64,000 bases of DNA. Origin: Chloroflexota bacterium (GTDB taxonomy: Bacteria > Chloroflexota > Dehalococcoidia > Bin125). The translations under genes and the position numbers were made by a program. Of this stretch, positions 114-41,144 are shown one piece after another (the stretch's first letter is position 1; the number at the start of each line of letters is the position of its first letter). The stretch covers positions 4,031 to 68,030 of the forward strand of contig JAPPBN010000046.1 of assembly GCA_026705025.1 (NCBI GenBank), read 5' to 3'. The notes beneath the pieces were generated by a model that was not told the origin of the DNA, did no database searches, and was given only the letters and a program-made list of their open reading frames with translations.

Positions 114-1007
114 ATGTACCGGCCCGCTCGTCCACTCGCGCTCTGTGGCGGCGCCATTGGGTTCGCGCTGGCAGTGCTGGCGACCGTGGGCTGCGGCGGT
201 TCGACCGATCGCCTGGTCATCACCTCATCGGAGGCGGCGTTCGTGCCGGTCATCGAGTCCTCGGACATCCACGTCGGCGTCCCGCGCCTGGTGCTGACCT
301 TGCTGGAACGCGACGCGCAGCCACAGTTCCCCGAGGACGCCGCGTTCCGCATCCGATACTTCGACCCGACCGAAGACGGGATCAAATTTCACTCCGAGGC
401 AGAGCTCCGAGAGATCGACGTTGAGGGATTGCGCTATCTGATCGCCTCGGATCCACCCTTCGATACGGCCGGACAATGGGCGCTCGCGGTGACCGTCGAA
501 CTGCCTGACGGTACAGCCGAGAGCACGCCTCGCTTGCCATTTCTGGTCCGAGGCAATGCAACGGGCCTTGCGCGAGGCGATCCGGCGCCCAGGGTCGCCA
601 CGCCGACGACTGCCGACGGCGTGCTTGAGCGCATGGCGGAGCCGGGACCGGAGGCTGGTGGTCTGTACGAACGCTCCGCCACTGAACTGATCTCCGTTGG
701 AGAGCCGTTTCTCATCGTCTGGGCGTCAGCGGAACGGTGCGCCGGTAGGCGCGTCTGTGCGCGTGCCCTGGAACAGGCCAGTGCCGTGCTGGAGCAGGGC
801 ACGATTGCGGTTCTGCATGTAGAACCCTTCGGCAGGCCGCGTCCGCAGCCGCTGCAAGGGCTGATCGATGAGGCCAGCGAGGCCTGGTCGATTGAGGCGG
901 AGCCGCAGTTCTTCCTTGTCGACCAAGACGGCACAATCGCGGCGCGATTCGAGATCGTCGTGGAACAGGCGGAACTGGAAGCGGCTGTTGAGGCGCTGGC
1001 CCCTTAG
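114..1007 (+). CDS. Putative lipoprotein with C-terminal thioredoxin-like domain
   Basis: Signal peptide with lipobox (ATVGC); C-terminal FLIVWASAERCAGRRVC...VLHVEP...EPQFFLVDQDG resembles a thioredoxin-like fold; ATG 114 chosen over 72. Confidence 0.65.
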   Translation: MYRPARPLALCGGAIGFALAVLATVGCGGSTDRLVITSSEAAFVPVIESSDIHVGVPRLVLTLLERDAQPQFPEDAAFRIRYFDPTEDGIKFHSEAELREIDVEGLRYLIASDPPFDTAGQWALAVTVELPDGTAESTPRLPFLVRGNATGLARGDPAPRVATPTTADGVLERMAEPGPEAGGLYERSATELISVGEPFLIVWASAERCAGRRVCARALEQASAVLEQGTIAVLHVEPFGRPRPQPLQGLIDEASEAWSIEAEPQFFLVDQDGTIAARFEIVVEQAELEAAVEALAP

Positions 1008-1933
1008 ACCAGCACGTCCAGGCCGACGGCAGCGAAGACGATGAAGAGGTAGGCGATCGAGGCGAAGAAGAGACGCATCGGCGGGGCCTGGTTGCGCCAG
1101 ACCTGCCAGGCAATCCAGATGAATGCGGCGCCCGAAATGGCGCACGTCGTCAGGTAGCACCAACTGAGGTGTCCGCCCAGCGGTCCAAGCAGGCTCACCG
1201 CAACGAGGCCGACCGAGTAGATCATGAGCTGCTTGCGTGTTTCGCGTTCGCCGGAGACGACTGGCAGCATCGGCACGTCGGCCCTGGCGTAGTCCTCGCG
1301 GTACTTCAGCGCCAGCGCCCAGAAGTGTGGCGGCGTCCACATGAAGATGACCAGGAACAGGATGAACGGCGTCCAGGTGACTTCGCCGGTCACGGCAGCC
1401 CAGCCGACCAGCGGAGGAATCGATCCGGCTGCTCCGCCAATCACAATGTTTTGAGTCGTCGAGCGCTTAAGCCAGACCGTGTAGACGAGGACGTAGAAGA
1501 GCACGGCGGCCTCGGCCAGCAGCGCCGCCAGCAGGTTGACCGTCAGTGCGAGCTGAATCCCGCCCAGGGTCGCCAGCAATACGCCCCAGGTCAGCGCCTG
1601 CCAGGGCTGGACCACGCCGGCCGGCAGTGGTCGCCCTGCGGTCCGCTCCATGATCGCGTCGATATCGCGATCGAACCATTGATTGAAGGTGTTGGCGCCG
1701 CCAGCTGTCAGGATTCCTCCCAGCAGCGTGAGCAGGATCAACACCAGTCCCTCGCCAAAGCTGCCCCTCGGCCAACCGTCAGCAGCGACAAGCATGGTCG
1801 GAACCGTGGTGACCAACAGCAGACCGATGATGCCGGGCTTGGTCAGGTCCCAGAGTCCACGCGAGAATTCAAGTGCGCGCCTCGAGCTCGGGAGTGAGGC
1901 CGTTCGTTCGAGCGTGAGCGGACGATCAGTCAT
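1004..1933 (-). CDS. ctaB: Protoheme IX farnesyltransferase (heme O synthase)
   Basis: LTKPGII, DRDIDAIMERTAGRPL and FMWTPPHFWAL motifs; located in the cox cluster. Confidence 0.97.
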   Translation of the reverse strand: MTDRPLTLERTASLPSSRRALEFSRGLWDLTKPGIIGLLLVTTVPTMLVAADGWPRGSFGEGLVLILLTLLGGILTAGGANTFNQWFDRDIDAIMERTAGRPLPAGVVQPWQALTWGVLLATLGGIQLALTVNLLAALLAEAAVLFYVLVYTVWLKRSTTQNIVIGGAAGSIPPLVGWAAVTGEVTWTPFILFLVIFMWTPPHFWALALKYREDYARADVPMLPVVSGERETRKQLMIYSVGLVAVSLLGPLGGHLSWCYLTTCAISGAAFIWIAWQVWRNQAPPMRLFFASIAYLFIVFAAVGLDVLV

Positions 1934-3072
1934 CCGTTGCTCTCACTCTCCGCCGACACGCCCGCATCGGCGATACCGGCTGGTTGCAACGCCGTGGCCG
2001 GCTCGCTGTGCCGTCGCAGGCCACCGGCGCGATAGATCGCCACCAATGCCGCTCCGGAGACCAGCAACCAGGTGATTGAGCCCATCGAAAGGTGTAGCGC
2101 TCTGGCCCAGGCATCGAAGTTGATCCAGATCATCGCCGCGCCGATAAAGATCTGTGCCACGTAGAGCGTCGCCGCCCCATGGACCATGAACGTCAGGCCG
2201 CGCGCGCGAGGTCGCAGCATGACCACGCCCATCGAGGAGGCGAACAGGGCGATCGCGCCGAACAGAACCAGGAATCGATGTCCCATGTTCCATTGAGCGT
2301 ACTCTCCGTCGGGGAACAGCCCGCCATAGCAGAACGGCCAGTTGTTGCCGCAGGCCGCGCCGCCGGGCCCGACGTGTGCGCCCGCGTCTGGTCCAGCCCC
2401 GACATGGGTGACATAGGAACCAACCACCACGACGGCATAGACGAGCACCGCCGTGAATAATGCCACCCAGGCGTAGTTCCGCGCCTGCGAGGGCGAATCG
2501 GATCCGAGCGGCGCCTCGTCGTCGCTGCTGACGACGCGCCACTGGAATGTACTCAGCCAGGAGAATGCGACCACCATCAGAATCAGCATCGCGGTGGCGA
2601 GATGCAGCGTGACGATCAGCTCCTCGAGACGCTCGGTCACAGTCAGGCCGCCGAGTACGACCTGCACGGCCAGCAGTGGAATCGAGAGCACTGCGGGCAG
2701 CCAGATCCGCACCTGATCTCGACGCTTCAGCCAGGCCACGATGGCGTAGCCGAGGATGATCAATCCCATGATCGCGGCGACCAGCCGGTGGGTCCATTCG
2801 AGCCAGACCTGATGCGCAGCGAACTCGCCGAAATCGCCCGACGGGATGACGGCGCCGTAGCAACCGGGCCAGTCGGGGCAGGCGAGCCCTGAGCCGGTCA
2901 CGCGAACAATCCCGCCCAGCGCCGTCAGCACGAGCAGGCCGATCACCAGCCCGAGGCCGACACGCTGAAATCTGGTCATCGATGCCATCTGAACCCGCTC
3001 TGGTTGCCGACCGGCACGAGTCGGCGCTGCACCCCCTAGTGTCTCACTTCTGGGCGTACTGGCGATAACCAC
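1930..3072 (-). CDS. ctaA: Heme A synthase (COX15/CtaA)
   Basis: GGIVRVTGSGLACPDWPGC, EWTHR, second Cys pair CGNNWPFC and conserved His residues; start could be 2988. Confidence 0.93.
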   Translation of the reverse strand: MVIASTPRSETLGGAAPTRAGRQPERVQMASMTRFQRVGLGLVIGLLVLTALGGIVRVTGSGLACPDWPGCYGAVIPSGDFGEFAAHQVWLEWTHRLVAAIMGLIILGYAIVAWLKRRDQVRIWLPAVLSIPLLAVQVVLGGLTVTERLEELIVTLHLATAMLILMVVAFSWLSTFQWRVVSSDDEAPLGSDSPSQARNYAWVALFTAVLVYAVVVVGSYVTHVGAGPDAGAHVGPGGAACGNNWPFCYGGLFPDGEYAQWNMGHRFLVLFGAIALFASSMGVVMLRPRARGLTFMVHGAATLYVAQIFIGAAMIWINFDAWARALHLSMGSITWLLVSGAALVAIYRAGGLRRHSEPATALQPAGIADAGVSAESESNG

Positions 3073-3139
3073 CGCGCCTCATGGTTGCCTGCTTGGCGGC
3101 AGTCAGCTCGCCGTGTCGTGGGCAGCGAGCGGGCAAGTT

Positions 3140-3432
3140 TCAGGTTCTGGGCGAACTTTTTTTTCGGGCCCTGAAACTGTGAACCGCTAGGCTGATCTTC
3201 AATGTATTGCTGAAGATCGTGGTGGTTCGGCGTCGAAATCCTTTCAGGTTTCTTCAGGCAAGTTCGGGGTAGAGCTGTTCGATCTTGTTCGGTTGCGTTC
3301 GGATGGCGGTGAGTCGATGCAGGAAGGATTGGCGAGGGTCGAGTCGGTTTGCCGGCGTGGGATGACGGGCACTGGGCGCTCCTGTCGGGGTTCAGAGGAT
3401 CGAGTACGGAGATCGTATACGGACATACGTTC
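3140..3432 (-). repeat. Dispersed SOS-box/10-bp-repeat element, ORF-less or remnant copy
   Basis: Aligns by eye with 40400-40475 (A-tract and GATCTyC-N11-GrAGATC dyad); GAAC repeats at 10-bp spacing at 3277-3300; LexA-like box at 3421-3432. Confidence 0.6.
3412..3432 (-). promoter_or_regulatory. LexA-like box GAACgtatGTCC 3 nt upstream of -10 TACGAT
   Basis: One mismatch to GAAC-N4-GTTC; same box/-10 geometry as at 40973-40992. Confidence 0.5.
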
Positions 3433-3522
3433 GCTTATCCGTCCCGCCTGTTATCCAGGTGACGAATGGGAGGGGGGGGTCTGCGCCCGGCCCGGACGCA
3501 TGAGCCGAATGCAGGCGATCGG

Positions 3523-4533
3523 CTACTGCTCGCCCGGTCGGGGGCCAAGGGTCGGAACTTCGCCATGGACGCGGATCTGCATGTCGCGGACCGTGTCGTT
3601 GCGGCGATCCTTGAATCCCTCGCGTTCCGCCCAGTAGTAAACCGTGACGATGATCGCCAGCGCGAACATCATCGATCCGGGCACCCACATGATCCCGGCG
3701 CCGATTCGTTGGTCGAGCAGCGCGTCGGGTCCCCATTCTCTGACCGCAGCCGCGGTCGCGTAGGTGTCGTAGACGGGCTCGCCGACGTTGATCAGGATGA
3801 GTCCGAGCCCGATGTTCTGCAGGATTGCCACCACCAGCAGCGCACAACGCCAGACGTGATGCGGCCGGAGCTTGGTCGCGTCGACGCCGATCACCAACCA
3901 CCAGAGCAACACCGCCCCGAGCAGGAAGACGCCGTGTTCGACGAAGTGGACCGCCTCTGAAGCAATCGCCGCGTCGTACGCGTCGGGCCAGTGCCAGCTC
4001 CAGACGCTGGCGATGTAGATCACAATCGCCGCCGGCGGCCAGGTCAGCGCGCGGACGAGCCTAGAGTTGAGGAACGGAACGAGATAGGTCGTGCGGACTC
4101 GAGGTGACGCGGCGCGCAGGGCCAGGGTCGCCGGCGCGCCGAGCAGCATCAACGGCGCGACGATCATCGTAATCATCACGTGCTGGATCATGTGCATCCA
4201 GAAGAGGTCGTCCGAGTACGTGTCGACCGGCGACATCAACCCCAGCAGCATGACCAGCCAGCCTGCGGCGAACGACCAGGCATGCCAGCGGGGAAAGTGG
4301 AAGCTGGGCGAGTCTCGGCGCAGCCGGTAGTAACCCCAGGCGTAGAGTCCGCCGACGACAATCACGATCGCCAGACCGGGCGCGTCGATGCTCCAGACCT
4401 GGAGCGCATTCAGGAGCTCGCCCGACTCGGCATAGCGCCCGTCGTGGGCCAGCAGGACCGTCGGAATCAGGGCTGCCGCGAAAGCAGCGATTGCCGCGAC
4501 CAGCGCTATCAGCGCTCGCGGTCTCCTGGTCAC
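3523..4533 (-). CDS. ctaG: Cytochrome c oxidase assembly factor, caa3-type CtaG
   Basis: HMIQH, WSWHWP.AYDAA, HFVEH and DQRIGAGIMW motifs. Confidence 0.92.
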   Translation of the reverse strand: MTRRPRALIALVAAIAAFAAALIPTVLLAHDGRYAESGELLNALQVWSIDAPGLAIVIVVGGLYAWGYYRLRRDSPSFHFPRWHAWSFAAGWLVMLLGLMSPVDTYSDDLFWMHMIQHVMITMIVAPLMLLGAPATLALRAASPRVRTTYLVPFLNSRLVRALTWPPAAIVIYIASVWSWHWPDAYDAAIASEAVHFVEHGVFLLGAVLLWWLVIGVDATKLRPHHVWRCALLVVAILQNIGLGLILINVGEPVYDTYATAAAVREWGPDALLDQRIGAGIMWVPGSMMFALAIIVTVYYWAEREGFKDRRNDTVRDMQIRVHGEVPTLGPRPGEQ

Positions 4534-4546
4534 GGACCGTTCCGCG

Positions 4547-5167
4547 TCAGCTGAGGAAGAAGACGAGCGGGAAGATCACCAGCAACCACACGAAACCCAC
4601 GAAGTGCCAGTAGAGCGTCGCCGCCTCAATCGCCGTATTGCGTTTGGCGTCAAAGTGTCCAAGCAGACCGCGCAGCCACTGAGCGAAGATGAACACCAGC
4701 CCGCCGATCACGTGCGCGCCGTGGAAGCCGGTCAGCGTGTAGAACGTCGCCGCGTAGGGACCGTCGGAGATGCCGAATCCGGCGTGGCTCCACTCGAAGT
4801 ACTGGTTGATGATGAACGCCGTGCCAACCACCAGCACGATGCCCATGTTGATCAGCATCGCCTTGCGGTTGCCCTTGCGAATCGCGAACGCCGCGAACTG
4901 CATCGGGATACTGGTCGAGACCAGCAGCACCGTGAACAGGATCGGCAGGAGGTGAGCACCCTCGACTCGGTGGGCGCCATTGGTCGGTTCCCAAAGCAGG
5001 GTGTCGCTGTGTAGGGCGAGCATCGCCGCGATCAGTCCGGCGAAGAACATGATCTCGGAGAAGATGAAGAAGATGATGCCCCACAGGCCGGTCGTCATCG
5101 GCTCGTCGCCGACGAGGAAACTGCGGACGGGGTGAACGCGCTTGTGCGGGATGGCGCTGGCTGCCAT
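4547..5167 (-). CDS. ctaE: Cytochrome c oxidase subunit III
   Basis: FIFSEIMFF, TFYTLTGFHGAHV and LYWHFV motifs. Confidence 0.95.
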   Translation of the reverse strand: MAASAIPHKRVHPVRSFLVGDEPMTTGLWGIIFFIFSEIMFFAGLIAAMLALHSDTLLWEPTNGAHRVEGAHLLPILFTVLLVSTSIPMQFAAFAIRKGNRKAMLINMGIVLVVGTAFIINQYFEWSHAGFGISDGPYAATFYTLTGFHGAHVIGGLVFIFAQWLRGLLGHFDAKRNTAIEAATLYWHFVGFVWLLVIFPLVFFLS

Positions 5168-5169
5168 GA

Positions 5170-6909
5170 CTACGCCTCCTCCCGCGTAGACGCAGTGGGC
5201 GCCTTGGCGCCGCCCCCGCGGCCGTTGCCGTTGTGACCGTTGTTGACGTGGTAGTGCGGGTCGTCCTGCAGTTTCTCGCCGAAGCGCAGGTCGAACAGCG
5301 GCCGCTCAGAGCGAATCTCGGGCAACGAGTCGAAGTTGTGCGCCGGCGGCGGCGAGGTCGTCGCCCACTCGAGCGTCGTGCCTTCCCACGGGTCGGAGCC
5401 GGCGCGTTCGCCCCACTTGAGTGAGTAGAAGACGTTGTAGAGGAAGACCATCATTCCGGCGGCCGACACGAACGCGCCGATCGTAGTCAGCATGTTCATC
5501 AGCTCCCAGCCGGGGTTGTCGACGTAGTCGTTGATCCGGCGAGGCATGCCGTCGAGGCCGAGCAGCAGCTGGGTGAAGAAGATCAGGTTGACGCCGATGA
5601 ACACCAGCCAGAAGTGCAGCTTGCCCAGACCCTCGTTCATGAACTTGCCGAACATCTTGGGGAACCAGTAGTAGCAACCGGCGAGGAAGCCGAAGGTGGC
5701 CGCAATCGACATCGTGTAATGGAAGTGGCCGACGACGAAGTATGTGTCGTGCAGGGCGAAGTCAACCGGCACGGCGGCGTGGAAGACGCCGGTGATCCCG
5801 CCGATCAGGAAAAGCATCAGGAAGCCGACGCTGAACAGCATCGCGGTGGGGAAGATGTTGGAACCGCGCCACATGGTGGCGATCCAGTTGAACATCTTGA
5901 CCCCGGTCGGCACCGCGATCAGGAAAGTCGCGCCCATGAAGAACGGCAGGAACACGCCGCCCGTCGTGAACATGTGGTGCGCCCAGACGATGAATCCGAG
6001 CAGCCCAATGGCGATCAAGGCCAGGACCATCGATCGGTAACCGAAGACCGGACGCCTCGTGAAGACGCCGAAGACGTCGGAGACGATGCCCATCGCGGGC
6101 AAGATCATGATGTAGACGGCCGGATGCGAATAGAACCAGAACAGGTTCTGCCAGAGCAGCGGCTGTCCGCCGGCGGCCGGGTCGAAGAATGCGCCCCCGG
6201 CGCCGTTGCGGTCGATGAAGCCCAGCACCAGCGCGGCGGCCAGCACCGGGGTCGAGAGCAGAATCAGCAGACCCGTGACCAGCGTCGTCCAGGTGAACAG
6301 CGGCAAGCGCCACATGGTCATCCCCGGCGCGCGCATTTTGAAGATCGTGACCAGGAAGTTCACGGAACCAAAGATGGACGCCTGGCCCAACAGGATGACA
6401 CCAACCAACCACATGTCCATCCCGGCGCCGGGCGGCTCGGCATTGTTGCCGGTGTCTAGCGTGACCGGCGGGTAGGCGGTCCATCCGGCCGAGGCGGTCC
6501 CGCCCTCGGCGGCGAAGCTCAGCGTGATCAGCACGCCGCCAAACAGGAAGATCCAGAAGGACAGCGCGTTGATCCTGGGAAAGGCCATGTCGAGCGCGCC
6601 GATTTGCAGCGGCATCGAATAGTTCATGAACGCCGCGCCGATTGGCAGCAGGAAGAGGAAGATCATCACGCTGCCGTGCATCGTGAAAATCGAGTTGTAC
6701 GTCTCCGCGGAGATGATCGTGCCGGTCTGGGCCAGTTCGGTCCGCATGACGAGGGAGAAAGCCATGCCGACCAGACCGAATGCGCCGGCCGTCCAGAGGT
6801 ACATGATGCCGATCTTCTTGTGGTCGACCGTGGTCAACCACTCGAGGATCACACGCCAGGCATTCGCCCCGGCATAGCTGCTCGTCTGTGCCCCCGCCAG
6901 TGTCGCCAT
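5170..6909 (-). CDS. ctaD: Cytochrome c oxidase subunit I (A2 type)
   Basis: TVDHKKIG, FTMHG, FWFYSHPAVY (A2 YS motif), VWAHH, GHFHY and GMPRR. Confidence 0.98.
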   Translation of the reverse strand: MATLAGAQTSSYAGANAWRVILEWLTTVDHKKIGIMYLWTAGAFGLVGMAFSLVMRTELAQTGTIISAETYNSIFTMHGSVMIFLFLLPIGAAFMNYSMPLQIGALDMAFPRINALSFWIFLFGGVLITLSFAAEGGTASAGWTAYPPVTLDTGNNAEPPGAGMDMWLVGVILLGQASIFGSVNFLVTIFKMRAPGMTMWRLPLFTWTTLVTGLLILLSTPVLAAALVLGFIDRNGAGGAFFDPAAGGQPLLWQNLFWFYSHPAVYIMILPAMGIVSDVFGVFTRRPVFGYRSMVLALIAIGLLGFIVWAHHMFTTGGVFLPFFMGATFLIAVPTGVKMFNWIATMWRGSNIFPTAMLFSVGFLMLFLIGGITGVFHAAVPVDFALHDTYFVVGHFHYTMSIAATFGFLAGCYYWFPKMFGKFMNEGLGKLHFWLVFIGVNLIFFTQLLLGLDGMPRRINDYVDNPGWELMNMLTTIGAFVSAAGMMVFLYNVFYSLKWGERAGSDPWEGTTLEWATTSPPPAHNFDSLPEIRSERPLFDLRFGEKLQDDPHYHVNNGHNGNGRGGGAKAPTASTREEA

Positions 6910-40042: not shown

Positions 40043-40150
40043 GGGAGGATCGTAAAGGGTGGGTTGGTAACGGAGCGTCGGGGAGGGCACGGGGAAGCCG
40101 GCAGCGGTGGGAGTGTTGCCAGTCGGCCGCTTTGGTGTTGATGGCGGGCG

Positions 40151-40210
40151 GCCCTCACCCCAACCCCCCGCATCAAGTGCGGGGCAGGCTTCTCCCTCAG
40201 TGAGAGGGGG
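40151..40210 (+). repeat. REP-like repeat interrupted by a second hairpin (ccccgcatcaagtgcgggg)
   Basis: Same arms as 41022-41056 with a 24-nt insert matching 41107-41127. Confidence 0.75.
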
Positions 40211-40234
40211 CCAGAAGGGGGGGGCGGAGGGAGG

Positions 40235-40933
40235 TTAGCCGGCGGCCTGGGCGTAGATCTGGGGTGGGATCTCCGGGTTCTGGCTGTCGGGATCGGTGAG
40301 TTGGTCGAGGAATAGGAGAATTTGTTGCTCGGATTGTCCCTTGAGGTGGGGGAAATGTTCGACGGCTTCGGCGATCAGGGCGTGGATGTCGGGTGATGGT
40401 GCGGTTTCTGCGGGAATTTTTTCTTCGGAGGGCTGAGATTCGACGATCTCCTGCTCTGGACTGGAGATCGTGGAATTGGAGGGTTCAATTTGTGCTGATT
40501 TGGTGATGGTTTCTGCCAGTTTTTGCGGCTCTTCGTCGAACAGATCGGGTTGGTCGGGGCGCTGGGCGGCTCGGCGGTGGACATCGTGGGCGGTGCGGCG
40601 GATTTCTCGGGCGAGGTGGTTGAGCTGGGTCTCCTGGGCGTCGCGGGCGCGGAGATAGTCGACCGGGGTGAGGCGGCTGGCATTGTCGGCGACGTAGTCG
40701 CGCTTGATGGCGAGGGTGAGGCGGATCTGGAGCAAATGGAGCGACTCGAGCAGGAGGTCGTCGGCCGAGGCGGCTGCGATGGTGGCCCAGTGGGTCTGGG
40801 CGAGCTTGAGATCGGCGCGGACGGTGGCGACGGAGATGTTGAGCTTCTCGGCGATCTGGCGCAAGGTGTGTCCTTGCTGGCGGAGGTGGTGGGCGCGCAT
40901 GATGCGTCGGCGGCGTTTGGGCGGGATGAACAT
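40235..40933 (-). CDS. Orphan HTH DNA-binding protein with low-complexity tail, LexA-boxed
   Basis: GHTLRQIAEKLNISVATVRADL HTH; helical middle region; QPDLF motif; AAAGG upstream. Confidence 0.8.
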   Translation of the reverse strand: MFIPPKRRRRIMRAHHLRQQGHTLRQIAEKLNISVATVRADLKLAQTHWATIAAASADDLLLESLHLLQIRLTLAIKRDYVADNASRLTPVDYLRARDAQETQLNHLAREIRRTAHDVHRRAAQRPDQPDLFDEEPQKLAETITKSAQIEPSNSTISSPEQEIVESQPSEEKIPAETAPSPDIHALIAEAVEHFPHLKGQSEQQILLFLDQLTDPDSQNPEIPPQIYAQAAG

Positions 40934-40955: not shown

Positions 40956-40992
40956 GAACGGACGTTCTGTTAACTGTAGCGAAAGGATGTTC
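40956..40992 (-). promoter_or_regulatory. Two LexA (SOS) boxes flanking -10 TACAGT
   Basis: Perfect GAACgtccGTTC at 40956-40967 and GAACatccTTTC at 40981-40992; GAAC-N4-GTTC is the known Gram-positive/Dehalococcoides LexA consensus. Confidence 0.75.
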
Positions 40993-41021
40993 GGTGTTGG
41001 TGTGTTGTGGGTGACGGAGGG

Positions 41022-41056
41022 GCCCTCACCCCAACCCTCTCCCAGAGGGAGAGGGA
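41022..41056 (+). repeat. REP-like palindromic repeat
   Basis: gccctcaccccaaccctctcccagagggagaggga. Confidence 0.8.
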
Positions 41057-41106
41057 GTCGGAACGAGAGGGGGACGGTGGGGCTGCGTGGGAGGATCGCG
41101 GTCTGG

Positions 41107-41127
41107 GCCCCGCATCAAGTGCGGGGC
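41107..41127. repeat. Second REP-like hairpin gccccgca-tcaag-tgcggggc
   Basis: 8-bp perfect stem; identical core at 40166-40185; may also act as the proB terminator. Confidence 0.7.
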
Positions 41128-41144
41128 ATCGGAGAGGGGTCGGG

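Follow-up and report, generated by a model that had tools for sequence, protein, structure and literature searches.

A dispersed non-coding repeat with LexA-type boxes inserted between ctaG and ctaA of a sponge-associated Dehalococcoidia bacterium: a candidate portable SOS promoter cassette

What fills the gap of ~530 nt between ctaG and ctaA in the minus-strand cytochrome oxidase cluster of this Dehalococcoidia genome? The locus lies in the window studied here, a stretch of 64,000 nt (GCA_026705025.1, contig JAPPBN010000046.1, positions 4,031 to 68,030; G000:C16:4031-68030 in our own numbering), and the source genome comprises 3,099,424 bases in 54 contigs, with 64% G+C and 97.6% completeness. 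Sponge-metagenome sequencing runs contain DNA of the window, and uncultured Chloroflexota/Dehalococcoidia assemblies are the source of all the nearest CtaG loci. A preliminary description, made from the letters of the window, had placed in this gap a non-coding, non-autonomous member of a dispersed element that resembled DNA inside a helix-turn-helix (HTH) gene at 40.4 kb and that carried a covarying dyad and a LexA-like box. Our preferred answer, to which we assign a probability of roughly 55%, is that the DNA from 3138 to about 3475 is a solo copy, i.e., one without an open reading frame (ORF), of a non-autonomous portable SOS promoter cassette of a sponge-associated Dehalococcoidia lineage. 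The parts of this answer that we infer from the sequence are the binding of LexA, the activity of the promoter, read-through into ctaA-ctaB, and the way in which the cassette spread.

The window copy belongs to a dispersed family of at least 83 members. A family profile was built in four rounds of nhmmer on the 3.1-Mb genome (cut-off E<=1e-3), which returned 46, 70, and 83 matches in successive rounds. The window copy (3138-3303) matched the profile with E=6.3e-27 and the copy at 40.4 kb (40404-40503, profile positions 7-106) with E=2.1e-13. Pairwise local alignment of 3140-3432 with 40400-40560 recovered only a 23-nt A-tract stretch (score 26, z 2.4), a score equalled by 11 of 500 dinucleotide shuffles and by 12 of 1000 random pieces of the genome. 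Blastn (word size 7) and single-sequence nhmmer gave many other partial matches around the genome and did not report the 40.4-kb partner. The resemblance previously proposed between the two stretches was thus marginal as a pair and stood as membership of one family, given the profile E-values and the 83 members. A simple codon-usage caller gave 2671 genes (87% coding); by its calls, 69 copies out of 83 were intergenic and ORF-less, and 14 were genic. Hundreds more family members were found in related genomes.

Alignments of 15 and 21 copies revealed a fixed module order across full copies. Read on the minus strand towards ctaA, the window copy consists of the box, 3 nt, TACGAT, a spacer of ~110 nt, four CGAAC units at ~10-nt phase, two 11-nt CCTGAA units, a 25-nt dyad, and finally an A8 tract with a small hairpin, hereafter the head, which lies 149 nt before the ATG of ctaA (Table 1). 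The motifs listed in the preliminary description (the dyad, the GTTCG repeats, the box with TACGAT, and the dyad at 40445-40469) were all present at the coordinates given there. In the opposite direction, the family starts at a sharp boundary, TTTCAGG, and its head consensus, TTTCAGGTTTyngnGAAAyTTTTTTTCT, is followed by a spacer of 10-25 nt and by the dyad CGATCTCCAG-TGTTTTR-CTGGAGATCG, whose 3' arm is far better conserved than the 5' arm. Beyond the dyad come three to four tandem 11-nt units TTTCAGGTTTT, or subfamily variants of equal period, and then three to four tandem 10-nt units TGTTCGGnTC. The GTTCG units of the window correspond to this last module and read CGAAC, a LexA-type half-site, on the gene strand. 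The head of the window copy has an extra arm, AGTTTCAGG (3136-3144) pairing with CCTGAAACT (3170-3178). Most full copies have three to four of the 11-nt units, and the strains in runs X9 and X10 have one more than the window, behind 3241 (10 nt, TTTCAGGTTT). Four copies combine dyad arms in the usual place with an inverted loop (AAAACA for TGTTTT), as would result from recombination of one arm with the other.

At ctaG-ctaA, the element is an insertion absent from most relatives. Among 45 related loci holding both genes, the spacer is at most 90 nt long in 38 and exceeds 400 nt in three, all of which contain a family member. The alignment of these loci exhibited a clean gap at the insert, and in one contig from run X17, 47 letters of other sequence separate 3051 from 3525. 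Two further loci provided the same kind of comparison: the spacer before an SDR gene measures 554 nt in this genome vs 41 nt in G024, and the DinG-like locus carries here an insert of ~400 nt that contains the perfect box GAACTAATGTTC and, after it, TAGGAT, the spacer being a few tens of nt long and devoid of a box in five element-free genomes. Presence/absence polymorphism at orthologous sites, a mark of putative mobile promoters, was observed at three loci, and in all three filled/empty comparisons the box/-10 module falls inside the inserted DNA. At the ctaG-ctaA site itself, L011 carries an intact 228-aa HTH gene with a two-box promoter, preceded by two units resembling repetitive extragenic palindromes (REP), and L006 carries a different ORF-less subtype. 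No DNA similarity was detected among the inserts of the window, L011, and L006; either insertion at this site occurred more than once or one old insert has changed past recognition. Regarding the limits of the element, a CGAACAGGC-like motif had suggested that it extends past the head on the gene side; this was rejected, the flank shared with the empty allele at the SDR locus coming to within ~12 nt of the head.

The copies are oriented with their head towards a gene that reads away from them. Of the 69 ORF-less copies, 53 have a head-side gene that reads away from them and 14 have one that reads towards them (p=1.8e-6), and the ratio was 34 to 6 for copies located between co-directional genes. 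The distance from head to start codon has a median of 80 nt (interquartile range 46-148), and 43 ORF-less copies have a start codon no more than 200 nt away. We examined 23 downstream proteins, which belong to many Pfam families and are mutually unrelated, so that the repeat is not a by-product of gene duplication; they include ctaA, an SDR, the DinG-like helicase, UvrB, an amidase, EthD, enoyl-CoA hydratase, two luciferase-like monooxygenases, two CoA-transferases, and GltX. Homologous DNA is thus found upstream of non-homologous genes, another mark of putative mobile promoters. In genome G008, which is complete in one contig, the copies on the plus strand are grouped at 0.47-0.83 Mb, apart from one at 1.70 Mb, and most of those on the minus strand lie at 1.38-2.71 Mb, a hint that orientation also follows the replication arm.

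The box/-10 module is a positioned trait of the family. We recovered a compound module, formed by a box with at most one mismatch, 2-4 nt (nearly always 3) and TAnnnT read towards the gene, in 17 of the 69 ORF-less copies vs 56 of 20000 random 300-nt pieces (0.28%), and in 8 of the 18 copies from genome G008. It lies 104-182 nt from the repeats, a distance kept in the two genomes, and its -10-like part takes the forms TACGAT, TACAAT, TATAAT, and TATGAT. Boxes with at most one mismatch were present within 350 nt past the tail in 31 of the 83 copies vs 13.6% of random pieces, and perfect boxes in 5 of 83 vs 0.34%. The commonest box form in the family is GAAC-N4-GTCC, and the window module, GAACGTATGTCC-gta-TACGAT, is a typical example of the compound module. 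Orthologues of the window copy keep GAAC...GTAC and TACGAT or TAACAT, the 4-nt spacer of the box being variable; a related strain has TACCAT (3414 C>G). The copy near uvrB has an equal layout with a box showing two mismatches.

The gene for LexA itself (LexA_DNA_bind and Peptidase_S24 domains) has a perfect box, GAACGGCCGTTC, 62 nt upstream of its start codon. The genome contains 44 perfect GAAC-N4-GTTC sites, 15 of them intergenic: one is that of lexA, three precede HTH paralogues by 11-23 nt and six are found at five ORF-less loci, 98-173 nt past the GTTCGG tail. As in a LexA operator, the box of the window adjoins a promoter-like hexamer facing ctaA, the promoter being a motif match. The LexA-like box next to a -10-like hexamer that had been pointed out in the window was thus recovered as a recurrent and positioned feature, which makes a damage-controlled role of the element plausible as far as motifs can tell. 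A Y-family polymerase (IMS) gene (G000:C54:32555-34063) starts 14 nt from a perfect GAACTAAAGTTC box (34077), which also lies 158 nt past the tail of an element copy facing the opposite way; one palindromic box may divergently serve a classical SOS gene and a cassette.

The core DNA of the element is common to the linker-coding part of an HTH gene family with near-perfect LexA-type boxes. The member in the window encodes protein P0001 and is preceded, 23 nt before its ATG, by the only perfect GAAC-N4-GTTC box of the window (40956-40967); the arms GATCTCC and GGAGATC (40445-40451 and 40463-40469) lie inside its ORF. Among the 14 genic copies, ten are antisense in paralogues of P0001 and one is in a fragment of such a gene. 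Outside the HTH family, an in-frame copy (profile positions 53-125, G000:C16:118663-118734) occurs in an 851-aa RecG-like helicase ORF, near the N-terminus, where it encodes ...NLDKSGQ....

About 17 HTH loci were detected in the genome by tblastn, and P0001 has 183 database relatives alignable over their full length, with names that go no further than "HTH domain-containing" or "DeoR family, partial." Searches of Pfam, PHROGs, and NCBIfam with P0001 returned only generic HTH or sigma region 4. Its AlphaFold model (mean predicted local distance difference test score, pLDDT, of 74) has a confident HTH and long helical hairpin (residues 1-125), and residues 133-180, the stretch encoded by the element-like DNA, are disordered (pLDDT <50). 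Foldseek retrieved nothing from the PDB at E<=1e-3, and Atlas matches were <0.9. The promoters of the HTH genes are organized as box, 2 nt, TACAGT, 5 nt, box, and in 11 of 12 paralogues a box with no more than one mismatch lies 6-59 nt from the start codon. We found no conserved gene neighborhood around the paralogues, whose neighbors are mutually unrelated; at most loci examined, the next downstream gene is co-oriented with the HTH gene, like with the ORF-less copies. Blastn of the window insert against the HTH loci gave nothing convincing beyond the core. The possibility that ORF-less copies retain the first HTH codons was abandoned, being unsupported by a profile of the HTH 5' regions.

Table 1. 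Coordinates of the inserted element, of its HTH-coding relative, of the oxidase genes, and of copies with an inverted dyad loop (window numbering unless a contig is given).
Feature	Position	Strand	Basis or remark
Whole block absent from empty alleles, ctaG stop to conserved ctaA leader	3052..3524	-	X17 contig and locus alignment
Cassette proper	about 3138-3475	-	read towards ctaA
Head: TTTCAGGTT, then GAAC and T8 tract (A8 on gene strand)	3138..3183	+	profile alignment, 15- and 21-copy alignments
Dyad GATCTTCA-N9-TGAAGATC	3194-3201 and 3211-3218		inverted-repeat search and alignments
11-nt tandem units TTTCAGGTTTC/TTCAGG	3242..3258	+	two in window copy
Four GTTCG units (3262, 3277, 3287, 3297)	3262..3303	+	spacings 15, 10, 10
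-10-like hexamer TACGAT	3412..3417	-	3 nt downstream of box, towards ctaA
LexA-type box GAACGTATGTCC	3421..3432	-	one core mismatch
Family member inside HTH gene (head, dyad, first 11-nt units)	40404..40503	+	antisense; reverse complement encodes disordered linker
HTH gene P0001, 232 aa	40235..40933	-	N-terminal HTH, long helical hairpin, disordered linker, small C-terminal helical domain
HTH promoter module	40956..40992	-	GAACATCCTTTC (40992-40981), gc, TACAGT (40978-40973), taaca, perfect box GAACGTCCGTTC (40967-40956)
ctaB	1004-1933	-	Pfam
ctaA (heme A synthase family; COX15-CtaA), gene the cassette points at	1930-2988	-	Pfam
ctaG (Caa3_CtaG), upstream neighbor of insert	3523-4533	-	Pfam
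ctaE	4547-5167	-	Pfam
ctaD	5170-6909	-	Pfam
Copy with inverted dyad loop	G000:C45:309026-308851		
Copy with inverted dyad loop	G000:C10:4015-3873		
Copy with inverted dyad loop	G000:C44:62251-62123		
Copy with inverted dyad loop	G000:C48:42297-42466		

The copy numbers of the element and of the HTH gene rise and fall together across the genus. Other genomes were searched with a sequence-only covariance model; the counts rest on 41 or 65 scored candidates, so that high values are lower bounds. In the genus, 18 of the 24 other genomes yielded the element; 16 genomes representing other families of the class yielded none. Within the family defined by GTDB, 29 of 65 genomes had it: 24 of 36 in genus g1, 3 of 9 in genus g18 (weak matches, few copies) and the single genome of genus g20, with at least 38 copies; none was found in 18 genomes of seven other genera. 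The counts per genome were bimodal, 0-10 vs 25-56 (the upper values being lower bounds). Over 25 genomes of the genus, the numbers of elements and of HTH genes correlated with a Spearman coefficient of 0.92 (0.91 minus the HTH-internal copies), a value that overstates independence since the genomes are kin. The 11 genomes with at least five HTH genes had at least 27 elements each, and the 10 genomes with no HTH gene had at most eight.

The ORF-less copies have no consistent reading frame, in agreement with the non-coding, non-autonomous character announced for the window copy, which the 83 members and the empty sites also bear out. In 34 of them, the longest frame across the dyad was distributed 12/11/11 over the three frames, and the window and its L002 orthologue differ by a 1-nt indel; a small ORF was thus rejected, there being no preferred frame and a frameshifting indel between orthologues. 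The covarying dyad of the preliminary description turned out to be a single instance: the T:A pair of the window occurs at this position in 2 of 76 copies, and 68 distinct dyads contained 370 Watson-Crick pairs of 544 vs 360 +/- 5.7 in column shuffles, 114 of 2000 shuffles reaching the observed value. The head hairpin behaved similarly (37 pairs of 60 vs 37.0 in shuffles). This removes the support for the argument, drawn from that dyad, that selection acts on structure rather than on protein; in the HTH genes, the palindrome encodes the conserved peptide TISSPEQEIV, so that a constraint at the protein level is possible there.

In the mechanism that we propose, the cassette would act as a portable promoter/operator repressed by LexA; upon DNA damage, repression would be lifted and transcripts would run through the repeat-rich leader into the gene downstream, in the window ctaA-ctaB. 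On the opposite strand, the hairpin and T8 tract of the head could stop antisense transcription, which would make the reverse orientation polar; such polarity would help to explain the orientation bias. The ORF-less copies would be derivatives of the HTH cassette devoid of coding capacity that multiplied on their own.

Several observations weigh against a portable promoter controlled by LexA. The box of the window has one core mismatch (GTCC), as in most ORF-less copies, only 5 of the 83 copies have a perfect box, and no module with one mismatch or fewer is present in 52 of the 69 ORF-less ones. The recA gene has only a box with one mismatch, and five of the intergenic perfect boxes adjoin genes without an obvious SOS role (a binding protein with a penicillin amidase, a SIR2-like protein, ribosomal L9, an SDR, and a small ORF). 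We take GAAC-N4-GTTC to be the LexA site of this organism from the box of lexA itself and the general literature. A scan of 2800-3700 for consensus two-hexamer promoters and terminators found nothing, 21 of the 23 downstream genes are not DNA-repair genes, most encoding catabolic enzymes, and the orientation bias could come partly from the replication strand. The copies are ~70-85% alike, so that their spread is old. The nhmmer profile of the HTH 5' regions retrieved only 14 HTH loci and no ORF-less copies; the promoter shared by the two kinds of copies is therefore a short motif, for which homology is not demonstrated.

The signs of a known mode of transposition were also lacking. No terminal inverted repeat joins the ends of 3040-3540, and the ends of the family are unlike, with TTTCAGG at one and GTTCGG and the promoter side at the other. 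Flank-to-flank alignments indicated no target-site duplication, 24 of 25 full copies having z<2 vs shuffles, and a 13-nt direct repeat (3106/3528) was rejected as a target duplication, being at chance level (z 0.7). There were no matches to Y1/RAYT (PF01797) in the 97.6%-complete genome, control genomes being matched, and neither TnpB nor reverse transcriptase was found in it; its transposase-type genes are one rve, one DDE_Tnp_1, and two tyrosine recombinases. No transposase-encoding autonomous parent was seen, the sole coding relative being the HTH protein, which has no catalytic domain. In view of the missing terminal repeats, target duplications and RAYT-type enzyme, mobility is inferred from distribution alone, and the HTH proteins controlled by SOS boxes are the only candidate partner seen for movement of the element.

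Some of these points would suit inert relics, in which the ORF-less copies would be decayed leftovers of HTH cassettes or REP-like junk, the box a promoter fossil, and the orientation bias only the result of selection against the polar orientation or of the replication strand. The imperfection of most boxes, the many copies without module, the divergence of the copies, the downstream genes mostly foreign to DNA damage and the relatives lacking the insert at the same loci speak in this sense. We nevertheless consider this explanation rather doubtful, because the module order, the box-N3-TAYNAT spacing and the distance of 104-182 nt are kept in two genomes, orthologues keep the half-sites of the box while its spacer changes, the promoter-side polarity is strong (53 vs 14), and the inserts before a DinG-like helicase have perfect boxes. 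An origin of the whole resemblance by chance between two unrelated stretches, to which the marginal pairwise alignment and the pair missed by blastn had lent some credit, is refuted by the profile E-values (6e-27 and 2e-13), the 83 members and the hundreds more in relatives, and its probability is negligible.

Two other explanations shift the weight from the box to the repeats. The phased CGAAC/CCTGAAA units and the dyad could form an array of iteron-like sites for the putatively SOS-induced HTH paralogues or for a nucleoid protein, that is, a cis target for regulation or mobilization and more than a promoter. The repeat period follows the helical turn, the number of units varies, the ORF-less subfamilies differ in repeat sequence with the same period, the numbers of HTH genes and elements co-vary, and the HTH protein has a confidently predicted DNA-binding fold of unassigned family. 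We nonetheless regard such an array as unlikely, since the equivalent DNA in the HTH genes encodes a disordered linker and co-occurrence among kin is not independent evidence. A structured RNA, either a damage-induced small RNA or a cis-acting leader with selected hairpins, is still harder to defend. On the gene strand, the fold of the window copy is somewhat better than that of shuffles (z -2.35, 1 of 200 as good; z -1.48 on the other strand), the copy has two clean hairpins, and T:G mismatches exceed A:C mismatches in the dyad. This excess, however, fits the G+T-rich composition of the strand, many copies have a broken and degenerate 5' arm, and neither the dyad nor the head hairpin shows an excess of Watson-Crick pairs over column shuffles. 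Between 2800 and 3700, Rfam (E<=10) gave a single match, the long non-coding RNA bxd_5, at 16.9 bits vs a gathering score of 50, i.e., at chance level, and the scan contained no intrinsic terminator, the T8 of the head being preceded in most copies by a stem of only 4-5 bp. The structured RNA suggested in the preliminary description was thus not supported, the dyad showing no family-wide covariation, and we consider it very improbable. A bolder extension of the promoter cassette, in which HTH paralogues made upon damage would recognize the phased 10- and 11-nt arrays common to them and to dozens of ORF-less cassettes, and then mobilize the cassettes or tune the promoters into ctaA-ctaB, the DinG-like helicase, and uvrB, also seems to us improbable. 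Were the HTH paralogues to mobilize cassettes, they would define a new kind of element without a classical transposase, and under such recognition the lineage would have built a large, fast-changing DNA-damage regulon from a mobile cassette.

How does a portable SOS promoter cassette compare with known systems? GAAC-N4-GTTC is the Cheo-type LexA operator of Gram-positive bacteria and Dehalococcoides. The cassette box shares its dyad and spacing, and lexA has a perfect copy here, whereas the boxes of the window and of most ORF-less copies read GAAC-N4-GTCC or GTAC and are putative sites. In the Rickettsia palindromic elements, repeat DNA lies in frame inside protein genes and encodes a surface or linker peptide; the genic copies of the cassette differ in being concentrated in one family, that of the HTH genes, instead of scattered over many genes. 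The Correia elements of Neisseria are bounded by terminal inverted repeats, duplicate a TA target, and can supply promoters to neighboring genes. Like these miniature inverted-repeat transposable elements (MITEs) with outward promoters (cited in PMC3575422), the cassette is short, non-autonomous, high-copy, and intergenic. It differs from Correia elements by the absence of terminal inverted repeats, of target duplications and of any transposase-bearing parent found. REP/REPIN elements (PMC3575422, PMC8049555) resemble the cassette as dispersed intergenic repeats that contain palindromes without terminal inverted repeats or target duplications. In contrast to the REP/REPIN-RAYT system, no Y1/RAYT gene was found in the 97.6%-complete genome, and the unit, instead of being a pair of palindromes, is long, polar, and modular. 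On the defining criteria, the element qualifies neither as a MITE nor as a REP/RAYT element.

The 13E12 copies of Mycobacterium tuberculosis bear genes, are ~1.4 kb long, and number a handful. Of this repeat family, "the majority ... is controlled directly by LexA" (Smollett et al., 2012, PMC3381160), so the two cases are alike in that SOS boxes were multiplied through a repeat. Most copies of the cassette, in contrast, are ORF-less and point at host genes, and P0001, which has no Pfam match beyond generic HTH, gave no sign of homology to 13E12. Besides that family, the closest published parallel is that of putative mobile promoters, defined as homologous non-coding DNA upstream of non-homologous genes in one genome and thought to rewire regulation, their means of movement being open (Nijveen, Matus-Garcia & van Passel 2012, PMC3575422). 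They occur mostly as pairs with at least 80% identity over 50-100 nt (PMC3575422). The cassette likewise consists of homologous non-coding DNA before non-homologous genes; it differs by having at least 80 members, a length of ~340 nt, a modular structure, an operator-like box, a fixed polarity, and a protein-coding relative. Our literature search, supplements not covered, retrieved nothing joining LexA with miniature inverted repeats, nothing joining it with dispersed or intergenic bacterial repeats beyond the M. tuberculosis case and nothing on repeats in sponge Chloroflexi or on the Dehalococcoides LexA box.

If box and -10 hexamer are active, one repeat family would put dozens of unrelated genes under the control of LexA, including those for respiratory heme A/O synthesis, many catabolic enzymes, the DinG-like helicase and uvrB, and the set of genes so controlled would differ in each species of the genus. 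The repeat family may thus have rewired many genes of this uncultured sponge bacterium. It would represent a countable case of regulon growth by promoter spread, so far documented mostly as similar upstream pairs. The family also raises the question of how a cassette of ~340 nt and its HTH-coding relative multiply in genomes with almost no transposases. For annotation, the element explains a class of long intergenic gaps and of low-complexity linkers in these uncultured genomes.

Some minor observations concern the surroundings of the two copies in the window. We placed the start of ctaA at the ATG at 2988, following the alignment with relatives and the codon-usage gene caller; the GTG at 3072, which opens the longest ORF (1930-3072, 380 aa), was rejected because it overruns into a conserved leader and relatives favor the ATG at 2988. 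This leader (2990-3050, minus strand) covers ~60 nt before the ATG, contains the hairpin GCCGAC-tcgtgcc-GGTCGGC, is conserved in all close relatives with or without the insert, and could be a cis element native to ctaA. Upstream of the HTH gene, short hairpin repeats on the minus strand, CTCCCTCTCCCTCTGGGAGAGGG...GGTGAGGGCCC (41020-41055) and GATGCCCCGCACTTGATGCGGGGCCCAG (41103-41130), have dozens of blastn matches each in the genome. They recur upstream of HTH cassettes, twice in the ctaG-ctaA spacer of L011 and once in that of L006, and are also present in element-free genomes. A third family of short repeats lies directly downstream of the HTH gene (40144-40235), with ~15 blastn matches elsewhere in the genome.

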